Shown: positions 2,223-59,839 of the stretch, piece after piece | How the letters are laid out: every line of letters begins with the position of its first letter | Numbering within the stretch: the first letter of the stretch is position 1 | Virus record (IMG/VR): IMGVR_UViG_3300043434_000734 | Location: 96,001-160,000 of that record | Source of the DNA: a virus | Lineage: Duplodnaviria > Caudoviricetes | Direction: 5' to 3' (one strand) | DNA: 64,000 nt | The notes under the pieces: model-generated | Seen by the model: the letters and a program-made list of their open reading frames with translations, nothing else | Told to the model about the DNA's origin: nothing | The model's database searches: none | Made by a program: the position numbers and the translations under genes

Positions 2223-3449
2223 ATGTCAAAAATTAAAATTTTAGCAATCCCATCAGACAAACACGGTGTTGGGAAATTTAGAATGATGGACCCGTATAAA
2301 TTTATCGGGGAAAACCATTCTGATGATGTGCACGTTGATATCACATTCAACGCCGAAGATAAAGACGAATATTTTTTAAATTACGATATTGTAGTTTTTC
2401 ACTCATTTATTCACCAAACAAATCACGATTCTAATATAAAGAGAATAAAATGGTTACAATCAAAAGGTATTAAGGTTGTAATGGACATTGATGATTTATG
2501 GTTTGTTGATCAAAGACACCCAATGTATTATCAAATTAAAGTTTCAGGTATTGCTGAAATGAAGATTGAAATGTTAAAGTTGGTCGATTACGTTTCAACA
2601 ACTACATCCATTTTTGCACAAACAATTAAAGAACGATTAGGTGTGAAAAATGTTGTTATTTTTCCTAATGCAGTTAATGAAGACGAACCACAATTCAAAC
2701 GTGAAACCGTCAAATCTGATAAAGTTAGATTTGGTTGGTTAGGTGGGTCTTCTCACTTATACGATATTGAATTAATGTCAAGTGGTATTGCTACAACTCA
2801 CAATTTATTTAAAGATAAAGTTCAGTTTGTTTTATGTGGTTTTGACATAAGAGGGTCGGTAACTGAAATTGACCCAAAAACTAAGCAACAAAGACAACGA
2901 CAAATTAGACCCATTGAAACAGTTTGGTATAAGTATGAGAAATTCTTTACTGATGATTATCGAGCTGTAAGTCCTGAATATAAATCATACCTTAATACAT
3001 TTGTTGAAACATCTTACGATGATATTAATTTACCATATAGAAGAAAATGGACAAAAGAAATTAATTCATATGCAACAAATTATAATACTTTTGATGTATC
3101 TTTGGCACCGTTAGTGGAATCTATGTTTAATGCTAATAAGTCACAATTAAAAGTTATCGAGGCTGGTTTTCATAAAAAGGCAATTATCGCAAGTGAAACT
3201 CAACCATATACATTAGATTTAATATCTGCAGTTGATGAGGGTAAGTTTAACAATAAAGGAAATGCATTATTCGTTAACCCAAAAAGAAATCATAAAGATT
3301 GGGCAAAACATATGAAACGTTTAATTGAAAATCCTAATATGATTGAGGATTTAGGTGAACGTTTATATGAGACAGTAAAAGACACGTATTCATTAAAAAA
3401 AGTATGTGGAGATAGATTAGAATTTTTTAAAACAATTATAAATAAATAA
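2223..3449 (+). CDS. Glycosyltransferase (GT-B/GT4-like)
   Basis: MDIDDLW, FGWLGGSSH, DVSLAPL..SMFNANKSQLKVIEAG motifs. Confidence 0.85.
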   Translation: MSKIKILAIPSDKHGVGKFRMMDPYKFIGENHSDDVHVDITFNAEDKDEYFLNYDIVVFHSFIHQTNHDSNIKRIKWLQSKGIKVVMDIDDLWFVDQRHPMYYQIKVSGIAEMKIEMLKLVDYVSTTTSIFAQTIKERLGVKNVVIFPNAVNEDEPQFKRETVKSDKVRFGWLGGSSHLYDIELMSSGIATTHNLFKDKVQFVLCGFDIRGSVTEIDPKTKQQRQRQIRPIETVWYKYEKFFTDDYRAVSPEYKSYLNTFVETSYDDINLPYRRKWTKEINSYATNYNTFDVSLAPLVESMFNANKSQLKVIEAGFHKKAIIASETQPYTLDLISAVDEGKFNNKGNALFVNPKRNHKDWAKHMKRLIENPNMIEDLGERLYETVKDTYSLKKVCGDRLEFFKTIINK

Positions 3450-47950: not shown

Positions 47951-48023
47951 GGGCCTGATGTCAACGGCAGACCATCTGATTTGCAATCAGAATGAATGGG
48001 TTCGATTCCCACAGCGTCCACCA
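47951..48023 (+). tRNA. tRNA-Ala(TGC), bulged acceptor stem, encoded CCA
   Basis: tctga-tttgcaa-tcaga; G3:U70. Confidence 0.8.
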
Positions 48024-48026
48024 AAT

Positions 48027-48099
48027 TGGAATGTAGCTCAATGGTGAGAGCATCCGCCTGATACGCGGAAGGTTATAAGTTCGAGTCTTATCATTCCAA
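48027..48099 (+). tRNA. tRNA-Ile(GAT)
   Basis: tccgc-ctgatac-gcgga; full cloverleaf. Confidence 0.95.
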
Positions 48100-48104
48100 C
48101 ATTG

Positions 48105-48177
48105 GGAACTTTGGTATAGCCGGTGCGTACGTTGGACTGAAAATCCGAAGGAACAAGTTCGATTCTTGTAGGTTCCA
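48105..48177 (+). tRNA. tRNA-Phe(GAA)
   Basis: ttgga-ctgaaaa-tccga. Confidence 0.9.
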
Positions 48178-48240
48178 CAAATAAAGTAAAATTTGAACGA
48201 TAAAGTTAATCACTTTATTAAACAGAAATAACTTTATTAT

Positions 48241-48314
48241 GACCTCTTAGCTCAGTTGGTTAGAGCACCTCACTTTTAATGAGGGAGTCCCGCGTTCGAG
48301 TCGCGGAGGGGTCA
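48241..48314 (+). tRNA. tRNA-Lys(TTT)
   Basis: cctca-cttttaa-tgagg. Confidence 0.95.
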
Positions 48315-48319
48315 CACAC

Positions 48320-48392
48320 ACGGGTATGGTGAAAATGGTTATCATTTTAGTCTCCAAAACTAAAGTTCCTGATTCGAGTTCAGGTATCCGTG
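48320..48392 (+). tRNA. tRNA-Trp(CCA)
   Basis: ttagt-ctccaaa-actaa. Confidence 0.92.
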
Positions 48393-48453
48393 CAAATGTT
48401 CGATTTTTTTAGTCCGTTTCGAACTTTCGTGATATTTATAAATAAAGAACATT

Positions 48454-48993
48454 ATGAAAGAAGAAATATTAAAATTAAGAAATGAAGGTAAAACATTTAA
48501 CCAAATAAAAGAAATAATAAAATGTTCTAAATCTACAATTTCATATTATTGTAGTGAAGGGCAAAAAGAAAAAACAAAAATTAGAACTAAAAAGAGGAGA
48601 GAAAACATTATAATTGATAAATTAGAAAGATTTAAATATAGAAAATCTAAATCGAATAAAGAACGAATTAGAAAATTCAATAAAAGAGATAATCAAATGG
48701 ATGGATTAGTTAACAAAAAAATAGAAATTACATTCACATTTGAAGATGTTATCAAGAAGTTTGGTTATAGTACTGTTTGTTATCTTTCCGGAGAAAAAAT
48801 AAATTTAAATGAAAACACATACCATTTTGACCATATTTTACCATCAAGTAGAGGTGGTGATAACACATTAGAAAATTTAGGTGTTACACACGAAATTGTA
48901 AATAAAATGAAAGGGGACTTAACACCAAAGGAACTTATTCTTTGGTGTGAAAAAATTTTGAAATATAATGGATATGATGTAAATAAAATTTAA
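48454..48993 (+). mobile_element. HNH homing endonuclease with N-terminal HTH
   Basis: CYLSG...HFDHILPSSRGG.NTLENL...VNKMK. Confidence 0.88.
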
Positions 48994-49039
48994 TATTATG
49001 AAAAAAGAATTCGATATGCATTAGTTAAACTAATCGCAT

Positions 49040-49243
49040 ATGACAAACAAAGAGTACAGAGTAAAGAGAATGAAACAATCACACGATTATTGTTTCATAT
49101 GTCAGAAGAGAAATGGAAGTTGGTATTATGATTGCTCCCCAACTTTTGTTCACGGAAGACACGGTAATGGGAAACCGATTGAATCTCATAAAAGAAGAGA
49201 GTATAGAAGTTGGAAGTACAACAGAAAAACTCAATGGAAGTAA
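49040..49243 (+). CDS. Small basic hypothetical protein
   Basis: 67 aa with CxxC. Confidence 0.55.
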   Translation: MTNKEYRVKRMKQSHDYCFICQKRNGSWYYDCSPTFVHGRHGNGKPIESHKRREYRSWKYNRKTQWK

Positions 49244-49272
49244 TGTTTACTATTAACAGTAAACAGTAAACG

Positions 49273-49344
49273 GGTCTCTTGGTGTAACGGATAGCACGAA
49301 ACACTACGGATGTTTTAGTAAGGGTTCAAATCCTTTAGAGACCT
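49273..49344 (+). tRNA. tRNA-Arg(ACG)
   Basis: aaaca-ctacgga-tgttt. Confidence 0.92.
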
Positions 49345-49405
49345 CAATGTTCACAAATTTTTAATGTTCACGTTCCGTGAACAAACAAAAAAAGTGAACA
49401 AAAAA

Positions 49406-49476
49406 GTCAGGTTGGCCGAGCGGCTAGGTGAAGGTCTGCAAAACCTTTAAGATAGGTTCGACTCCTATACTTGACT
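49406..49476 (+). tRNA. tRNA-Cys(GCA)
   Basis: aaggt-ctgcaaa-acctt; U73. Confidence 0.93.
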
Positions 49477-49481
49477 CTTAT

Positions 49482-49553
49482 GGTGTTTGAAGCTTTAAGG
49501 TGAAGCACGAGTTTGTGGAGCTCGGGAAGACGGTTCGATACCGTTCATACACC
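49482..49553 (+). tRNA. tRNA-His(GTG)
   Basis: cgagt-ttgtgga-gctcg; G-1:C73. Confidence 0.92.
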
Positions 49554-49558
49554 CATAT

Positions 49559-49629
49559 TGCGGGGAGGAAGGTTCCCGACCAGTCTCATAAGCTGTGTCT
49601 CCCGAGTTCGATTCTCGGCCCCGCAACCA
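49559..49629 (+). tRNA. Atypical tRNA-Met(CAT): initiator-like acceptor, short D-arm
   Basis: tgcgggg/ccccgca-acca; ctcataa loop. Confidence 0.7.
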
Positions 49630-49680
49630 AAAAGTTTTAAAAATAATTTGAAATAATTTCGGATATTCGTATTTATTTCT

Positions 49681-49688
49681 TACATTTG
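49681..49688 (+). promoter_or_regulatory. Bacteroidota-type -7 element TACATTTG
   Basis: Same tacatttgtaaaacaataa context as 56016. Confidence 0.75.
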
Positions 49689-49709
49689 TAAAACAATAAT
49701 GACAGAAAA

Positions 49710-49838
49710 ATGGCGAAAGCACCGAGAACATCGAAAAGAGTTGGTAAAGTGGCAAGTAAAGCATTAAGAAGTAAAAAAAGTAGCAAGACAACAAAAACTC
49801 TTGCGGGAAGTTCTTTGAGACAACGGAGAAAAAAGTAA
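49710..49838 (+). CDS. 42-aa highly basic peptide (MAKAPRTSKRVGKVASKALRS...)
   Basis: Below the ORF-track cutoff; promoter and A-rich start upstream. Confidence 0.65.
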   Translation: MAKAPRTSKRVGKVASKALRSKKSSKTTKTLAGSSLRQRRKK

Positions 49839-49843
49839 AATAA

Positions 49844-49915
49844 GCCTCTTAAGCATTGCAGGCGATGCGCCAGATTTGTAATCTGGATAACTCGGTTCGA
49901 TTCCGGGCGGAGGCT
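49844..49915 (+). tRNA. tRNA-Thr(TGT)
   Basis: ccaga-tttgtaa-tctgg. Confidence 0.9.
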
Positions 49916-49916
49916 C

Positions 49917-50375
49917 AACAAGTGACGACTGTGGTGTAACCCCACGGTATATAAATCCCAAAGAACTGTCTTGATTCGCGATATCAGAGCAGTGAGGGTA
50001 GAGTTTACTATAAGCGGGGAGTAATTAACCCAATGCGAAAATGTAACCACCAAGTGTAGAGATATATTTGGTTATGATGTACAGAAGGGTACAAAAAACT
50101 TGTTAATTTATTAATTTAGATTCTGATAACTTATAACTAAAGTTTTACTTAAACAAAGGTTATGGAGCAATTTGAGAAATGTTGTTATCACTAAGAATGT
50201 AAATTAATAAAGTTTGATTACGTTAGGTATGTAGTTTAAAAAGAACAATGTCCTAATAGATGAAGGTGTGAGTAATCACCTTACTTAACGTAATTTAAAT
50301 TTAAAACTAACTCAACGAGGACTTTGTTAACCAGAGCAAGACTTGGATGGTGCAACTTAAGGTGAGTTAGAATTT
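49917..50375 (+). ncRNA. Putative ~460-nt structured RNA of unknown class
   Basis: No + strand ORF; helices 50217-27/50284-94, 50263-68/50277-82, 50307-14/50363-70. Confidence 0.5.
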
Positions 50376-50376
50376 T

Positions 50377-50448
50377 GGTCCTGTAGTTAATCGGCTATAA
50401 TATTGCCCTGTCACGGCAAAGTGCCGGGTTCGATTCCCGGTGGGACCG
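50377..50448 (+). tRNA. tRNA-Asp(GTC)
   Basis: ttgcc-ctgtcac-ggcaa. Confidence 0.93.
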
Positions 50449-50672
50449 CAATGAGTAAGAGATACTCAATAGTCTTTAATCCAAGACTCATTTAACAATG
50501 GATGGTGGTTTGTAGTATCAACCTTAACGACTGCATATTGGGAACAAGGATTGTGGACCTACTCTCCCCCAAGTATTAGGTTGACGTTTTAACAGAGGGA
50601 TGCCTCGCAGGTTTTTGAGACAGACAAAAAACCGAAGTAACTACTCATCAGGAATCTCAAGGTGGGGAAAAT

Positions 50673-50760
50673 GGAGAGATGGTAGAGTTGGTCTATTGCA
50701 CCTGACTTGAAATCAGGAGTACTCGTGAGGGTACCGTGGGTTCGAATCCTACTCTCTCCG
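50673..50760 (+). tRNA. tRNA-Ser(TGA)
   Basis: cctga-cttgaaa-tcagg; long variable arm. Confidence 0.95.
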
Positions 50761-50876
50761 CTGTAGAGTTTGCCCGTGGTAACGGTCTGATAAGATACTT
50801 TCAGACTTCTCGCGTCAAAACCCAAAACACTGACCTACTGGTGCTTGGGCTAAATGTAGAAAAAAAACGGGATATT

Positions 50877-50964
50877 GGAGAGATGGCAGAGTTGGTCGAT
50901 TGCGTCAGACTTGAAATCTGAAGAACGGGAAACTGTTCCGTGGGTTCGAATCCTACTCTCTCCG
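50877..50964 (+). tRNA. tRNA-Ser(TGA), second copy
   Basis: tcaga-cttgaaa-tctga; long variable arm. Confidence 0.95.
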
Positions 50965-51063
50965 CGAACCAAAAGTCCAATGGGGAGGATCCACTACACG
51001 ATTAGCAATCGGAAGAGTAGATTAAGACTAAGGTTGCTTGACACTCCGGAAAGACGAGAAAAC

Positions 51064-51202
51064 AATCAAGTAGAGTGGTGGTACACTCACTATGTATGCA
51101 TCGTAAGATGGACGCCTTCTTCCCGCAGAGCACATAGATATGTCGTTTAGTGATATGGAAGAACACGGGAACGATTTGTAGGTTCGAATCCTATCTTGAT
51201 TG
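51064..51202 (+). ncRNA. Oversized tRNA-like RNA 1 (139 nt)
   Basis: Perfect 7-bp acceptor, D-arm and T-arm; 38-nt anticodon loop; 40-nt variable region. Confidence 0.7.
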
Positions 51203-51317
51203 CCTTTCCTTTCAGGGTAACGACCTGATAAATTTTGAGATACTAAAGTTGTAACACCAGGGACTCAACGAAAGAAAGTCGGAAACTAAACTTGACTGAT
51301 GGAAAGACATCAAATTT

Positions 51318-51447
51318 GGGAAGGTAGCAGAAATGGAAGATGCGTTATACGAAAGCTACGTATAAGACGCGATGACGGACACAAAAGTACAATGTGTTGA
51401 ACTAAAGATTACGCATCGTTATGGGTTCGATTCCCACTCCTGTCCCA
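51318..51447 (+). ncRNA. Oversized tRNA-like RNA 2 (130 nt)
   Basis: Bulged acceptor, D-arm, 7-bp anticodon-like stem, 55-nt variable domain, T-arm. Confidence 0.6.
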
Positions 51448-51648
51448 CAGGTCGTCTTTTTATATTGCTCAGTTTGTGGAGTTAACTTTAGAGACGTTAA
51501 ACTTAAAGTAATGAATCCAAGCCCTTTTAAAGTTGTGGTACAACTGGGTCCATTTCCTTACCGAAGGAGGTTTCCGGACCTAAAATAGAAGCCTCAAACG
51601 ACTGAAAAAAGTAGGGACATATGAGACTACCTAATCTCGTCCCGAAAT

Positions 51649-51720
51649 GGCCCTATCGACAAGCGGTTAAGTCACGTCCCTTTCACGGATGAGTCACGGG
51701 TTCGAATCCCGTTGGGGCTA
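51649..51720 (+). tRNA. tRNA-Glu(TTC)
   Basis: cgtcc-ctttcac-ggatg. Confidence 0.95.
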
Positions 51721-51735
51721 CTAAATGGTTTTACT

Positions 51736-51894
51736 ATGAAGAAGATTGTATTTTTATTGTTAGTAATGGTTACAATGAGTAGTTGTTTATATACAACATA
51801 TAGACGACCTTATTATCAACGATATCCGACTTATCAGAAACATTATCAACCAAATAAAAAATATAAACCTTACTTTAGACCAGGTCGTTGGTAA
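51736..51894 (+). CDS. Small Tyr/Arg/Pro-rich lipoprotein
   Basis: MKK-hydrophobic-MSSC lipobox. Confidence 0.75.
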   Translation: MKKIVFLLLVMVTMSSCLYTTYRRPYYQRYPTYQKHYQPNKKYKPYFRPGRW

Positions 51895-51948
51895 AAAATA
51901 TTTACTATTAAATTGAATTTTTATATATTTGTATATACTTATTAAGAA

Positions 51949-52053
51949 ATGAAGAACATAAATAACATATTGTCACTTAGTACTAGACCATTAAATAATG
52001 GTAACGGGTATGGTGTGCAACCCGTGAATTTATGTTCGGATACTCATATTTAG
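51949..52053 (+). CDS. Putative attenuator leader peptide 2 (MKNINNILSLSTRPLNNGNGYGVQPVNLCSDTHI)
   Basis: TATATTTG promoter at 51924; tgttcgg complementary to the terminator 5' arm. Confidence 0.55.
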   Translation: MKNINNILSLSTRPLNNGNGYGVQPVNLCSDTHI

Positions 52054-52075
52054 AAATTTAATTAATTAAAATATA

Positions 52076-52111
52076 GACCCGAACGACTTAAAAAATTGTT
52101 CGGGTTTTTTT
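52076..52111 (+). terminator. Terminator/attenuator before the second tRNA block
   Basis: gacccgaacga...ttgttcgggtt plus T-tract. Confidence 0.88.
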
Positions 52112-52142
52112 ATGTTATTTTTTTTCTTTATATTTGAAATGT

Positions 52143-52155
52143 AGTTCTTTGACAT
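52143..52155 (+). promoter_or_regulatory. boxA-like element AGTTCTTTGACAT
   Basis: Follows TATATTTG (52129-52136); similar copies at 49809, 56042, 59421. Confidence 0.6.
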
Positions 52156-52169
52156 TGTGGAAATGATTT

Positions 52170-52254
52170 GCTCGGGTGGTGTAATGGTAGCCACGAGGGA
52201 CTTAAAATCCCTTGGACAGAAACGTCCGTGCCGGTTCGAGTCCGGCCCCGAGTA
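52170..52254 (+). tRNA. tRNA-Leu(TAA)
   Basis: aggga-cttaaaa-tccct; long variable arm. Confidence 0.95.
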
Positions 52255-52369
52255 CAATGTAATGACTTAGAAATAAGTGACGGAACAGACGCTATGTATG
52301 AAATGGAAACGTTTGAAACATTTTAAAGATGTTGATTCGACACAAACCGTACAGACATTACATTAAATT

Positions 52370-52443
52370 GGTCCAATAGCTCAGCTGGATAGAGCAACTC
52401 TCTTCTAAAGAGTAGGTCTCAGGTTCGAATCCTGATTGGATCA
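52370..52443 (+). tRNA. tRNA-Arg(TCT)
   Basis: actct-cttctaa-agagt. Confidence 0.95.
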
Positions 52444-52588
52444 CGAAGATAATGGTTTTCACCACCTTACGGATGTCGACAATCCACGGTGGAATCTGAA
52501 AACAGCACCCTCTGCCGAGCGCTCGTAAAACTACGATTAAGCAGTTAAGATTGGAACGAGACGGGTATTCCAACATTATCTTTATTTT

Positions 52589-52661
52589 AGAGTAGTTGAC
52601 CAATCGGTAGGTCCCTTGCTTTGGGAGCAAGTGTGTGTAGGTTCGAGTCCTGTCTACTCTA
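52589..52661 (+). tRNA. tRNA-Pro(TGG)
   Basis: cttgc-tttggga-gcaag. Confidence 0.9.
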
Positions 52662-52668
52662 CAAAAAC

Positions 52669-52740
52669 GTTGGTATAGCTTAATGGTGAAGCATTCGGCT
52701 GTTAACCGAAAGACTGTAGGTTCGAGCCCTACTACCAACG
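52669..52740 (+). tRNA. tRNA-Asn(GTT)
   Basis: ttcgg-ctgttaa-ccgaa. Confidence 0.95.
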
Positions 52741-52747
52741 CAAAAAT

Positions 52748-52824
52748 ACCCGTATGGCGGAATTGGCATACGCGTCAGATTTAGGATCTGAATTTTGTAG
52801 GTTCGAGTCCTACTATGGGTACCA
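52748..52824 (+). tRNA. tRNA-Leu(TAG), short variable loop, encoded CCA
   Basis: tcaga-tttagga-tctga. Confidence 0.88.
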
Positions 52825-52870
52825 GGGATTGGTTGACACTAAACAACAAAACCAAAAGGAAGTGTAAAAT

Positions 52871-52954
52871 TGGAGGATGGGTGAGTGGCTAAAACCGGCA
52901 GACTGTAAATCTGCTCTCAGAACGGGTACGGGGGTTCGAATCCCTCTCCTCCAA
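52871..52954 (+). tRNA. tRNA-Tyr(GTA)
   Basis: gcaga-ctgtaaa-tctgc. Confidence 0.95.
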
Positions 52955-52968
52955 CAAAAACAAAAACT

Positions 52969-53616
52969 ATGGCAACATTAGAAACACAGTACAAGAATTA
53001 CTTAAAGTTGAATCCAGATTCAACATTCACATTTGAAGAATGGAAAGAAGATTTCGGTGGTAACGTGCTTAGACAAATGTCCGATATCTTAAAAGAAATC
53101 AAAACTCCTGAATATAAAGAAAGACGTATTAAGGAACACGAAGAACGTCTTAAAAATATTACAATGGATTATCAATTGGGACAATACGTTGGTGAGTACA
53201 TTGTAAGTCACAATCTTCCAACATTATCGACCGATATGATTCACTCTAATCGTGTGATTAAAGTGTCTGACGAAGAACAAACTGAATGTGAAAGATTGGA
53301 TGGTGAATATGTTAAATCATTGGAAGCCAATCAATGGAAAAATGGTGATAGTGAATTATTTGAAGCGTGGAAACAATATCGTAAGGTATTGGAAAAGAAA
53401 TATCTTCCACAAGTTTTAGAGTGTCATCTTAGTTTAATAAGAATTGATGACATAGTAAAATTTAAAGAAGGTTTATCTGATTGTCTTTGGAATTGTGATA
53501 TGTGTTCTTATGACATCAAAGAAGAAAACATCACAATTGAAAATGATTTACTTAACGGATTTACAATTATCAAATTTCAATATGATTCGAGTTGTAATGA
53601 TGAAATGAAAAAATAA
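52969..53616 (+). CDS. Hypothetical protein inside the tRNA array
   Basis: 215-aa ORF with A-rich start. Confidence 0.8.
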   Translation: MATLETQYKNYLKLNPDSTFTFEEWKEDFGGNVLRQMSDILKEIKTPEYKERRIKEHEERLKNITMDYQLGQYVGEYIVSHNLPTLSTDMIHSNRVIKVSDEEQTECERLDGEYVKSLEANQWKNGDSELFEAWKQYRKVLEKKYLPQVLECHLSLIRIDDIVKFKEGLSDCLWNCDMCSYDIKEENITIENDLLNGFTIIKFQYDSSCNDEMKK

Positions 53617-53667
53617 AATATCGTTTAAATATACGATATACGATTTTATCGTCTTAATAAACGATAT

Positions 53668-53741
53668 GGACTTGTAGCTCAGTAGGTTAGAGCAACTGAC
53701 TCATAATCAGTAGGTCCCTGGTTCGAGCCCAGGCTGGTCCA
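53668..53741 (+). tRNA. tRNA(CAT), elongator Met or Ile2 (lysidine)
   Basis: actga-ctcataa-tcagt. Confidence 0.9.
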
Positions 53742-53802
53742 CAAAGAGATTAGGATATTCCTTACCCGTCGCCTCGGGATGACATCGTCAGTCTCTTTAC
53801 AT

Positions 53803-53877
53803 AGAAGATTAGTTCAGTCGGTTCAGAGCATCTGTTTTACACACAGAAAGTCGGGGGTTCGAATCCCTCATCTTCTA
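53803..53877 (+). tRNA. tRNA-Val(TAC)
   Basis: tctgt-tttacac-acaga. Confidence 0.93.
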
Positions 53878-53946
53878 CAAAAAAATTGGGATTGGGTTAA
53901 TACTGATATGGAGGCAATTCCTGGTATTATCGCCGCCCAATTAAAT

Positions 53947-54022
53947 GCGAAAGTAGCTCAGTCGGTAGAGCACAACCTTGCCAAGGTTGGGGTCGCGAGT
54001 TCGAATCTCGTCTTTCGCTCCA
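53947..54022 (+). tRNA. tRNA-Gly(GCC), encoded CCA
   Basis: caacc-ttgccaa-ggttg. Confidence 0.96.
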
Positions 54023-54025
54023 TAT

Positions 54026-54098
54026 GCGAATATAGCTCAATTGGTAGAGCACTAGTTTTCCAAACTGGGGGTTGCAGGATCGTTCCCTGTTATTCGCT
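54026..54098 (+). tRNA. tRNA-Gly(TCC), atypical T-loop ATCGTTC
   Basis: ctagt-tttccaa-actgg. Confidence 0.88.
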
Positions 54099-54192
54099 CA
54101 ACTCAAGTACCCATACCGCTAACGATGGGCTAAGTAAGATACAAATTCGTACCACATTATTGTGGAGGCGGGAAGTAGAATGCTTGAGACAC

Positions 54193-54263
54193 TGTCCTTT
54201 GGTGTAACGGTAACACAATCGTTTTTGGTGCGATTATTTTAGGTTCGAATCCTAAAGGGACAA
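54193..54263 (+). tRNA. tRNA-Gln(TTG)
   Basis: atcgt-ttttggt-gcgat. Confidence 0.88.
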
Positions 54264-54278
54264 CTTAAATTTTTAAGT

Positions 54279-54509
54279 ATGAGTATTTTTGCAATTTACT
54301 ACGTAATATGTATTGCGTATTGTTTCTATCAATTAAATAAAAAATATAGAAACAGAGGTGTTGATTATGGAACATCACCAGAGTTAGATTCCATAATGGT
54401 TTTGGTTATGGCTTGGATTTTAGTGCCAATTGATGTGTCGATAACTTGGATACGAATGGTGAAAGAAGCAGAGGAGTCTAAAAGAAGACAAGAGAAACAA
54501 GTACTTTAA
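54279..54509 (+). CDS. Small 2-TM membrane protein
   Basis: Two hydrophobic segments. Confidence 0.7.
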   Translation: MSIFAIYYVICIAYCFYQLNKKYRNRGVDYGTSPELDSIMVLVMAWILVPIDVSITWIRMVKEAEESKRRQEKQVL

Positions 54510-54570
54510 CTAGTGGGCCACGGTGGTAGGCCAAAAGAAAAATAGATGTTTTTCATCCACCAAATTTTAT

Positions 54571-54656
54571 AGAGAGTTACCCAAGTTGGTGAAGGGGCCT
54601 GTTTGCTAAACAGGTAGGATGTTAAAGTCGCAAGGGTTCGAGCCCCTTACTCTCTA
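54571..54656 (+). tRNA. tRNA-Ser(GCT)
   Basis: cctgt-ttgctaa-acagg; variable arm. Confidence 0.9.
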
Positions 54657-54661
54657 CACAT

Positions 54662-54811
54662 TGTAGTGTGACGAAACTTGGCAGACGTGCCCTCCTGTCT
54701 CGGGGGTGTGGAACAAGAAATAGGTTAATAATATGGGGTAGACCACCAGCCGGCCGGCGAAGTGTTATTAACTGAATCTCCATTTAAGTGGTTCGAATCC
54801 CTTCACTACAG
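54662..54811 (+). tRNA. Oversized tRNA with Asp(GTC) anticodon and 79-nt variable arm (150 nt)
   Basis: tgtagtg/cactaca acceptor; ccctc-ctgtctc-ggggg; 10-bp helix in the insert. Confidence 0.65.
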
Positions 54812-56063: not shown

Positions 56064-56870
56064 GGCCGCCTATGGTCGATTAAAATAAACCACGAAAGTG
56101 GGATAAAGTGACGAGTCCTTGGTTGGGACAAGTTGCGGTTTCAGTAATGGAACTTGAGTAGGCAAGTGGAGTATCGTTGAACCTTAAGTACTGAGGGTAA
56201 CACTTTAGGGAAAGTGGTTTGATGACTGAGCAATCCGAGTTGTTTGGTTGAGGTGGGAACACCAATAAGAATAATCCATAGAGTTATTGTGAGAAATATG
56301 GTTATCCGACTATATGATTACGTGATTCAATATGATGGGAATCTTAAAACCGAAAGGTATGGTGAAGTACGAGTGGTGTCGTTATCATCCTTTATTAAAC
56401 TCTACCAAGGGTTTAGTTTTGAAGGGGTCCAAAAATATGGTAGCAGGGATGTTACAGAGAGTAGTTTAGTATCGAGTCGCTCAAAAGGTGGCTTGGCTAG
56501 GTGACGAACCACTACTTTCCAAATTCGGATAACTAAATTTTGTTAATTTTGGTTTAACAACTTAAAATCATACAAGAAAAAGTGTTCGTCAGTCGTTGTA
56601 GACAGGTGGCTACATAGTCGTGAGGGGTTCACGGCCACAAAGGGTCTCAAGCCCAATGTGATTTTTAAAAAAGTTCTCTAAACCCGCAAGGTTGAATCAG
56701 GGAGGCATCTTTGATGAGTAATGAGTATTAAAAGAGTATATAACGACTCAAGGATTGGTTAATCTAATTGACCGCCGCTGATTGGTACTACTCAAAAGGT
56801 AGTGGATATGGGAAGAATCAAATAATGTCCCTAAGTCAATCAAAAAATGGTGTAATCTCAGCCCTTTCTT
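56064..56870 (+). ncRNA. ~800-nt structured RNA, GOLLD-like candidate
   Basis: GC-enriched, no credible ORF, many hairpins, long-range 5'/3' pairing, next to tRNAs. Confidence 0.65.
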
Positions 56871-59435: not shown

Positions 59436-59836
59436 GGGGATGTCTGGTATTGATTTCAGGTATCAGGGATAAATGGCACGTAGTCAGAATTCATCTATGA
59501 CTTAAATCCACGGTGAAACATTTTAGACGGCAACGTTTACAACAATATGGAAATTGCAGGTTTACTTGCAACTTCTAAAGTAGCGGCCTAACCAAGTTAG
59601 CACTACACTCGGGTCGATGTACATATAACCTAGGAACAGAAGTACTTAAGGTGTGATACCACCTAAGAGTGTCAAAGGTCTCGTTCAGAGGGCTACCTTA
59701 AAGTGAACTCGACACAGTTATAGGGAACGATGTTAAAATAGGAACCTTTTATTTGTCTGTTGTGAACTAACAGAATAAACGTGTAGTCATTTATTGTTGA
59801 ACAGGAAAGACACGGGTTCGACTCCCGTCATCTCCA
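59436..59836 (+). ncRNA. ssrA: tmRNA; tag GNVYNNMEIAGLLATSKVAA* (59529-59591)
   Basis: ggggatg/catctcc-a acceptor with G3:U70, T-arm acggg-ttcgact-cccgt, tag ending VAA. Confidence 0.93.
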
Positions 59837-59839
59837 CAT

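Follow-up and report, generated by a model that had tools for sequence, protein, structure and literature searches.

A predicted non-decoding, tRNA-like RNA, probably of class II origin, conserved in the tRNA array of a T4-like freshwater phage

Introduction

The transfer RNA (tRNA) gene clusters of phages are now viewed as tools of counter-defence. Some also encode stable RNAs that are not tRNAs, exemplified by rnaC and rnaD of T4, and to our knowledge no role has been assigned to RNAs of this kind since the 1970s. The genes for rnaD (species 2; 119 nucleotides, nt) and rnaC (species 1; 139 nt) form a tandem pair at the end of the tRNA cluster in T4. The rnaC transcript, which work in the 1970s found to be processed by tRNA enzymes, carries a canonical T arm (CCGGG-UUCGAAU-CCCGG), termini that pair in part and large internal hairpins, without an anticodon loop. 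A second system of relevance is the tRNA for selenocysteine (tRNA-Sec), in which an altered acceptor/T junction excludes EF-Tu and whose charging synthetase takes no account of the anticodon. What rnaC and rnaD do in T4 has yet to be established (PMC3014915, PMC9697503; for rnaC also PMC12685909). Here we describe a 130-nt element at positions 51318–51447, plus strand, of a 64,000-nt stretch of phage DNA (positions 96,001 to 160,000 of IMG/VR record IMGVR_UViG_3300043434_000734; hereafter the window), in which the element lies in tandem with another oversized tRNA-like RNA within an array of tRNA genes. The evidence, based on sequence comparison, indicates a structured RNA that is under selection, and makes it probable that the element is a genuine phage gene, conserved and encoding a non-decoding tRNA-like RNA of class II origin that acts as a tRNA mimic.

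Structure and conservation of the element

As the original prediction had described, the element has an acceptor stem with one bulge, U8-A9 and a D arm with GG, followed by a 7-bp stem with the loop AAAGCUA, lacking both U33 and a purine at position 37, a nested 55-nt variable domain and a T arm. The loop of the 7-bp stem has the form RARGCUA in every homologue. The features of the element are as follows.

51318–51447, plus strand: whole tRNA-like RNA gene, 130 nt, ending with the discriminator A; predicted from sequence, homologues and covariation
51318–51324, plus strand: acceptor 5′ strand GGGAAGG, with partner 51439–51446; pair 4:126 is changed from A-U to U-A in L099 and L115; pair probability 0.9–1.0
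51325–51343, plus strand: U8-A9 and D arm of the class II leucine type, GCA / GAAAUGGAAGA / UGC, with A14, A15, G18G19 and A20a; invariant in three homologues
51345–51365, plus strand: 7-bp arm, UUAUACG/CGUAUAA, closed by a loop of 7 nt, AAAGCUA; predicted non-decoding counterpart of an anticodon arm; four of seven pairs compensatory
51366–51420, plus strand: 55-nt extra (variable) domain; two pairs of the inner stem changed on both sides, one A-U of the outer stem changed to G·U
51369–51374 with 51414–51419, plus strand: outer stem of the extra domain, GCGAUG/CAUCGU, enclosing the inner hairpin
51378–51383 with 51393–51398, plus strand: inner hairpin of the extra domain, GACACA/UGUGUU, with the nearly invariant loop AAAGUACAA
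within 51366–51420, plus strand: single strand of the extra domain, GAACUAAAGAUUA, nearly invariant
51421–51437, plus strand: T arm with an A·C mismatch at 49:65, then UGGG/CCCA and the loop UUCGAUU; invariant save one loop base
51438–51446, plus strand: invariant extra U (51438), then acceptor 3′ strand CCUgUCCC with a bulged purine (51442) whose position is kept

In the numbering of the element, acceptor positions 1–7 pair with 122–129, position 125 (51442) being bulged; this purine is G in the window and A in L099 and L115. The D arm proper (51327–51343) consists of a 3-bp stem and an 11-nt loop containing G18G19, the same format as in the D loops of phage tRNA-Leu.

A scan anchored on the 3′ trailer, in which a T loop is followed by CAGGTCGTC(T/A)TTTT, a sequence that occurs after the last tRNA before tRNA-Glu in several relatives, recovered a homologue in contig L099, and a conserved 20-mer from the D arm recovered mutually identical copies in L115, L116 and L117. 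A second conserved 20-mer returned the same four viral contigs and no others. The true homologues, present in these four IMG/VR phage contigs, comprise two distinct sequences of 130–131 nt that are 82–83% identical to the window copy, and on which model R1 scores 163–165 bits. The comparison set accordingly contains three distinct sequences (window, L099 and L115) from close relatives. No homologue was found by BLAST and nhmmer searches with the element in 81 related loci that share the adjacent PhyH-like gene, by three DNA patterns taken from the acceptor or hairpin of the window's own copy, or by blastn against the phage collection. The pattern search matched a single metagenome locus, L086, by chance, where a tRNA-Gly lies on the reverse strand. 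Scanning bacterial genomes with the conserved 20-mer gave no bacterial copy at that stringency; three matches, all lacking a T arm and scoring 15–21 bits, were rejected as chance.

When the structure is read as 33 pairs in each of the three sequences, 99% of the cells are paired, and seven of the pairs have changed on both sides: acceptor pair 4:126, four pairs in the 7-bp arm and two in the inner hairpin of the extra domain. None of 500 shuffled controls reached the observed values for pairing and covariation, and sliding the structure by 1–3 columns left 32–55% paired. The window and L099 copies differ at 22 positions; 15 of these are in stems, where no change breaks a pair, and the other seven are in loops, the bulge and joiners. 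Save for the outer-stem and T-loop changes listed above, the D arm, the T arm, the outer stem of the extra domain, a 13-nt joiner, the first three acceptor pairs, U8-A9 and the discriminator A are invariant. Chance and simple decay are ruled out because there are compensatory pairs, pairing is kept and unpaired regions are invariant. Helix covariation across three sequences thus bears out the suggestion, made originally from one, that selection rather than decay has shaped the element, and indicates that it is a selected structured RNA, neither a chance resemblance nor a decaying pseudogene.

Calculated folding energies are −29.0 kcal/mol for the fold first proposed, −30.3 kcal/mol with the acceptor, D and T arms forced, and −30.7 kcal/mol for the minimum free energy structure; the cloverleaf-like fold is only 0.4–1.7 kcal/mol from the minimum. 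Pair probabilities are 0.8–1.0 for the acceptor, the 7-bp hairpin and the T arm. The z-score for folding of the single sequence is weak, at −1.03.

Decoding, ancestry and leucine identity

Of the parts of a canonical tRNA, the acceptor, a D arm with G18G19 and a T arm with UUCRAnY are all present and conserved. The anticodon arm is not canonical, its place being taken by the 7-bp stem with a loop of AAAGCUA or GAGGCUA, again without U33 or purine 37. With default settings, neither ARAGORN nor the Rfam tRNA models called the element, RF00005 giving no match at E ≤ 10. When ~3,000 single internal deletions were introduced into each homologue, there was no ARAGORN call common to all three, and the anticodons implied by the deletions disagree, being for Asn or Phe versus Leu-GAG. 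Lacking a decoding loop, the RNA is predicted to be unable to read codons.

The best non-self matches of model R1 are tRNA-Leu sequences, at 32.6 bits (L005-7) and 27.0 bits (the tRNA-Leu of T4), and the acceptor and T-arm ends of the element resemble phage tRNA-Ser(UGA). In this phage, the leucine tRNAs have A73 and the serine tRNAs G73; the element has A73. As part of the reading given above, we consider it probable that the element was derived from a class II tRNA of the leucine or serine type. The leucine identity set known from E. coli is complete in the element and invariant in the three homologues (A73, A14, A15/U48, G18G19, A20a, U54:A58, together with the D/T loop contacts). By these E. 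coli rules for leucylation, the anticodon arm, like the long arm, is dispensable for leucyl-tRNA synthetase (LeuRS), and in tRNA-Sec it is the pairs 7:66, 49:65 and 50:64 that reject EF-Tu (PMC9976931). The acceptor/T junction of the element, the zone that EF-Tu contacts, is irregular, with A·C at 49:65, the extra U and the bulged purine.

Boundaries, gene order and genomic context

Three further features are adjacent to, or in tandem with, the element.

51297–51317, plus strand: leader, consisting of the hairpin UGAUG-GAAAGA-CAUCA and then the conserved CAAAUUU abutting the 5′ end of the gene; compensatory stem change in L115–L117
51448–51461, plus strand: 3′ trailer CAGGTCGTCTTTTT, conserved in many related phages, where it comes after the final tRNA or tRNA-like gene preceding tRNA-Glu
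51064–51202, plus strand: partner, the first oversized tRNA-like RNA; 83–86% identity in L099, L115–117, L097 and L111

Conservation begins at the junction of CAAATTT with GGG and ends between the final A and CAGGTCGTCTTTTT. The CAAATTT is identical in all homologues, even where the upstream context diverges, and the hairpin with a GAAAGA loop precedes it in the window and in L115–117, the stem covarying as GATG/CATC versus GCTG/CAGC. In the contig from run X2, only AAA separates the upstream tRNA-like RNA from the element, joining the positions equivalent to 51203 and 51317; loss of the spacer exactly between the two units supports the boundaries assigned. The element is 3′ of the 51064–51202 homologue in all cases, at a distance of 115 nt in the window, 109 nt in L115–117, 7 nt in L099 and 3 nt in X2, and the order of this homologue, the element, the trailer and tRNA-Glu is fixed in the window, L099 and L115–117. 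L097 and L111 have the upstream RNA without the element; the element was not seen without the upstream RNA. The tandem arrangement noted in the window therefore recurs, in three phage lineages and one read-derived contig, and the original prediction as a whole, of a selected, oversized, non-decoding, tandem tRNA-like RNA, is supported by these comparisons. RNAduplex predicted no site of interaction between the two tandem RNAs that was consistent across the lineages.

In related phages, the slot before the trailer CAGGTCGTCTTTTT is occupied by tRNA-Ser(UGA), tRNA-Leu(UAA), tRNA-Phe or non-canonical class II-like elements of 87–176 nt. Because the occupants of this one slot range from ordinary tRNA-Leu and tRNA-Ser to these longer elements, the comparison suggests that class II tRNAs have repeatedly been remodelled into new RNAs. 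The non-canonical occupants are varied (L087 7966–8085, L095 6465–6584, L113 382–493, L108, and L102 11660–11835) and have acceptors of the form NNTCAGG/CCTGANN and D arms of the leucine type; in L101, an acceptor of this form belongs to a normal tRNA-Leu(UAA), and the 120-nt L087 element has a second, internal motif resembling a T arm. Downstream, at 51448–51648 of the window, the trailer CAGGTCGTCTTTTT, a hairpin with AGACGTTAAA in its loop and a GGGAC...GTCCC hairpin just 5′ of tRNA-Glu are conserved across many related phages, and the intervening sequence diverges. Leader hairpins with a GAAAGA loop (core GGAAAGAC), which have a boxB-like appearance, are located just upstream of non-canonical tRNA-like genes, at 51044–51058 and 51297–51312 in the window, at ~935–955 in L116, and in L087, L108, L113 and L037; their stem covaries between the window and L116. 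Directly 5′ of the 51064–51202 homologue, L116 (positions 615–710), L115 and L117 have a 96-nt sequence called by ARAGORN as tRNA-Val(GAC), which probably represents a further non-canonical gene of the tRNA-like kind. At 54662–54811, directly 3′ of tRNA-Ser(GCU), the window has a third oversized tRNA-like RNA, 150 nt long, in which the 7-bp acceptor pairs perfectly and a T arm is present; conserved copies are in L003, L028 and L029, eight pairs are compensatory in four sequences and there is no Rfam match.

The window is from a large, T4-like freshwater phage, with a Gp23 capsid protein, a T4 portal protein and a terminase recognized by Pfam and a G+C content of ~31%; identical DNA is present in a 209-kb contig from the Joint Genome Institute and in a second sample. 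The host is probably a member of the Bacteroidota. On the plus strand, 24 tRNAs called by ARAGORN and a weak tRNA-Ala occupy 47951–54657, and 3′ of this array are a GOLLD RNA (56457–56864; 314 bits), 80–94% conserved across many related loci, and a transfer-messenger RNA (tmRNA; 59436–59839) recognized by both ARAGORN and Rfam. This is the only tmRNA of the window; the element does not have the tRNA-like domain plus tag reading frame of a tmRNA. Two tandem tRNA-Ser(UGA) genes lie upstream of the element and tRNA-Glu lies downstream. The two tRNA-Ser(UGA) genes (50673–50761 and 50877–50965) are 83% identical, differing mostly in the anticodon and variable stems, and the spacer after the first of them shares GGTAACG(G/A)(T/C)CTGATAA with the spacer after 51064–51202. 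The weak tRNA-Ala(UGC) (47951–48020) scores 32 bits with Rfam, is not called by ARAGORN by default, and has G3·U70, two mismatches in the acceptor and a 17-nt T arm that the element shares letter for letter. An open reading frame (ORF) for an HNH endonuclease (48454–48993) within the array is reminiscent of SegB of T4, which cleaves the T-arm sequence of tRNA genes and so drives cluster rearrangement. No ORF of at least 56 amino acids was found across the element region, and a scan for sigma-70 promoters gave results at chance level, with a model that is ill-suited to a Bacteroidota host.

Discussion

As envisaged here, the element would be transcribed along with the tRNA array, cut by RNase P after the CAAAUUU leader, trimmed at its 3′ end at the U-rich trailer, and provided with CCA by the host; neither a phage CCA-adding enzyme nor RtcB was found in the records of relatives, and so host enzymes would be needed. 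The RNA would then adopt an L-shaped fold with a normal elbow, formed by U8-A14 and by G18G19 with the T loop, and the invariant top half may engage proteins that read the acceptor and elbow of tRNAs. LeuRS is the best candidate for such a partner, because the full leucine identity set of the E. coli type is present, and might charge the RNA. Entry into the ribosome would be avoided by the 7-bp arm with a loop lacking U33, by the 55-nt extra domain and by the irregular acceptor/T junction, and the conserved lower half may provide a specific binding surface. Retention of the top half together with three putatively ribosome-excluding features makes a tRNA mimic the most likely interpretation. 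Such a mimic could act on a host factor directed at tRNAs, as its decoy or sponge, or could be a charged carrier outside translation.

Several observations weigh against this interpretation. Three sequences from close relatives underlie the comparison, and because the D stem, the T stem and most of the acceptor pairs never vary, they are outside the reach of covariation. An alternative pairing of 22–27 with 95–100 is thermodynamically equal and is disfavoured solely by a G27-to-A change. The leucine rules stem from E. coli and not from the probable Bacteroidota host, and the bulge in the acceptor might be an obstacle to LeuRS, to RNase P or to the addition of CCA. Relatives without the element exist, including the 335-kb record G003, and the element is therefore dispensable for this type of phage. 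Expression was sought in four runs that consist of assembled contigs, from which ends, strand and level cannot be read; contigs from RNA libraries contain the upstream RNA 51064–51202, the element is present only in X2, a run of uncertain type, and no raw-read support for a mature RNA of 130 nt, for the position of its termini or for a CCA tail was obtained from these runs.

What such a mimic might do is a matter for tentative proposals. It is possible, although we would not call it likely, that the RNA accepts leucine from LeuRS, is barred from EF-Tu and the ribosome, and with its partner diverts or decoys a host system directed at tRNAs, for example a defence nuclease. The appeal of a decoy against tRNA-directed defence is that Septu and retron-Eco7 cleave a class II tRNA, tRNA-Tyr, at its variable arm (PMC13096335). 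It is unlikely that the element works in cis, as a module of the tRNA operon that signals processing or punctuation (an entry site for RNase P or RNase Z) or stabilizes the transcript end before the U-rich trailer, the excised RNA itself having no job. Its position fits, as it occupies the last slot before CAGGTCGTCTTTTT, held elsewhere by an ordinary tRNA-Ser, tRNA-Leu or tRNA-Phe, and a weak terminator-like hairpin overlaps its 3′ end. That hairpin, however, scores no better than chance and is missing from L099 and L115, an acceptor/T minihelix would suffice for punctuation, related phages manage without the element, and a cis role does not call for the near-invariance of the D loop, the RARGCUA and RAAGUACAA loops and the 13-nt joiner or for the covariation of two internal stems. 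Marginally less favoured again is an aminoacylated carrier, a leucylated RNA whose amino acid some enzyme off the ribosome, such as an aminoacyl-tRNA-dependent transferase, would use, or which would titrate LeuRS. The complete and invariant leucine set is what such a carrier would be expected to have, leucylation does not depend on the anticodon arm or on the long arm, and the neighbourhood of 49:65 and 7:66 is irregular at pairs that, in tRNA-Sec, reject EF-Tu (PMC9976931). Charging is, however, predicted from the sequence and may be prevented by the acceptor bulge, no aminoacyl-transferase gene was identified adjoining the element, and the identity elements are perhaps a mere inheritance from an ancestor resembling tRNA-Leu, kept for folding.

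Two explanations that would leave the element without a role of its own, or return it to translation, appear very improbable, and equally so. That it is a decaying class II tRNA duplicate with an insertion is suggested by the adjoining tandem copies of tRNA-Ser(UGA), by ends like those of tRNA-Ser and tRNA-Leu, by its rejection by default tRNA finders and by its absence from many relatives. Every stem substitution is, however, compensatory or preserves a wobble pair, unpaired regions are nearly invariant across lineages and the length is constant at 130–131 nt, so that covariation largely refutes this explanation. A decoding tRNA with an intron or an unusual anticodon loop would be consistent with a relaxed, intron-permitting ARAGORN search, which returns a tRNA-Cys(ACA) with a 36-nt intron. 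This call does not appear at the default threshold and ignores the covarying 7-bp hairpin, U33 is missing from the loop in all homologues, and no deletion yields a call common to the three; the intron models were rejected on the deletion scan and the hairpin. A non-decoding tRNA mimic of class II origin remains, in our judgement, the probable explanation.

An unrelated group of T4-like freshwater phages also keeps a tandem pair of tRNA-framed, apparently non-decoding RNAs under selection, and one of the pair keeps a full synthetase identity set, though stripped of all that decoding needs. A vaguely defined class of RNAs can then be approached through concrete questions of processing, the CCA tail, leucylation, rejection by EF-Tu and the binding partner. 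Should the reading as a LeuRS-charged decoy be true, it would be the first function for the 50-year-old class of species 1 and 2 RNAs of T4-type phages.

Among known RNAs, the class II tRNAs (bacterial and phage tRNA-Leu and tRNA-Ser; RF00005) share with the element a 7-bp acceptor, U8, A14, a D stem of 3 bp whose 11-nt loop reads GAAnUGGnAGA, G18G19, an extra arm that is long, the T loop UUCGAUU and, as in tRNA-Leu, A73. The element differs in having an arm of 7 rather than 5 bp with a loop lacking U33 and purine 37, a nested extra domain of 55 nt, and, in the 3′ strand of the acceptor/T stack, a bulge and an additional U. It resembles tRNA-Sec (RF01852) in the length of the extra arm, in the lengthening of the stem at the anticodon position and in a modified acceptor/T junction, but scores 16.6 bits (E = 2.3) against a gathering score of 47, in a match that covers only 51377–51445, and does not have the 8/5 helix layout, the 6-bp D stem or the UCA anticodon. 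The neighbouring RNAs at 51064–51202 and 54662–54811 are in the same array and have the same acceptor and T-arm frame and conservation with covariation, but have unrelated central domains, no match to R1 at E ≤ 1 and G rather than A as discriminator; by these comparisons the three are separate families. T4 rnaC and rnaD are the closest known analogues: like the element and its partner, they are tandem genes for small non-coding RNAs within a T4-type phage's array of tRNA genes, a class of stable RNA to which the element, by its position, tandem layout and tRNA frame, may belong. There is no detectable homology, as R1 has no match on rnaC or rnaD at E ≤ 1 and, in the T4 tRNA region (L082), matched only tRNA-Leu and not 2909–3172. 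The element also differs from both in its full class II D arm and elbow and its covarying 7-bp arm, and rnaD has no T arm. Together with the RNA at 51064–51202, the element may nevertheless be the counterpart, in these freshwater phages, of the rnaC and rnaD pair of T4.
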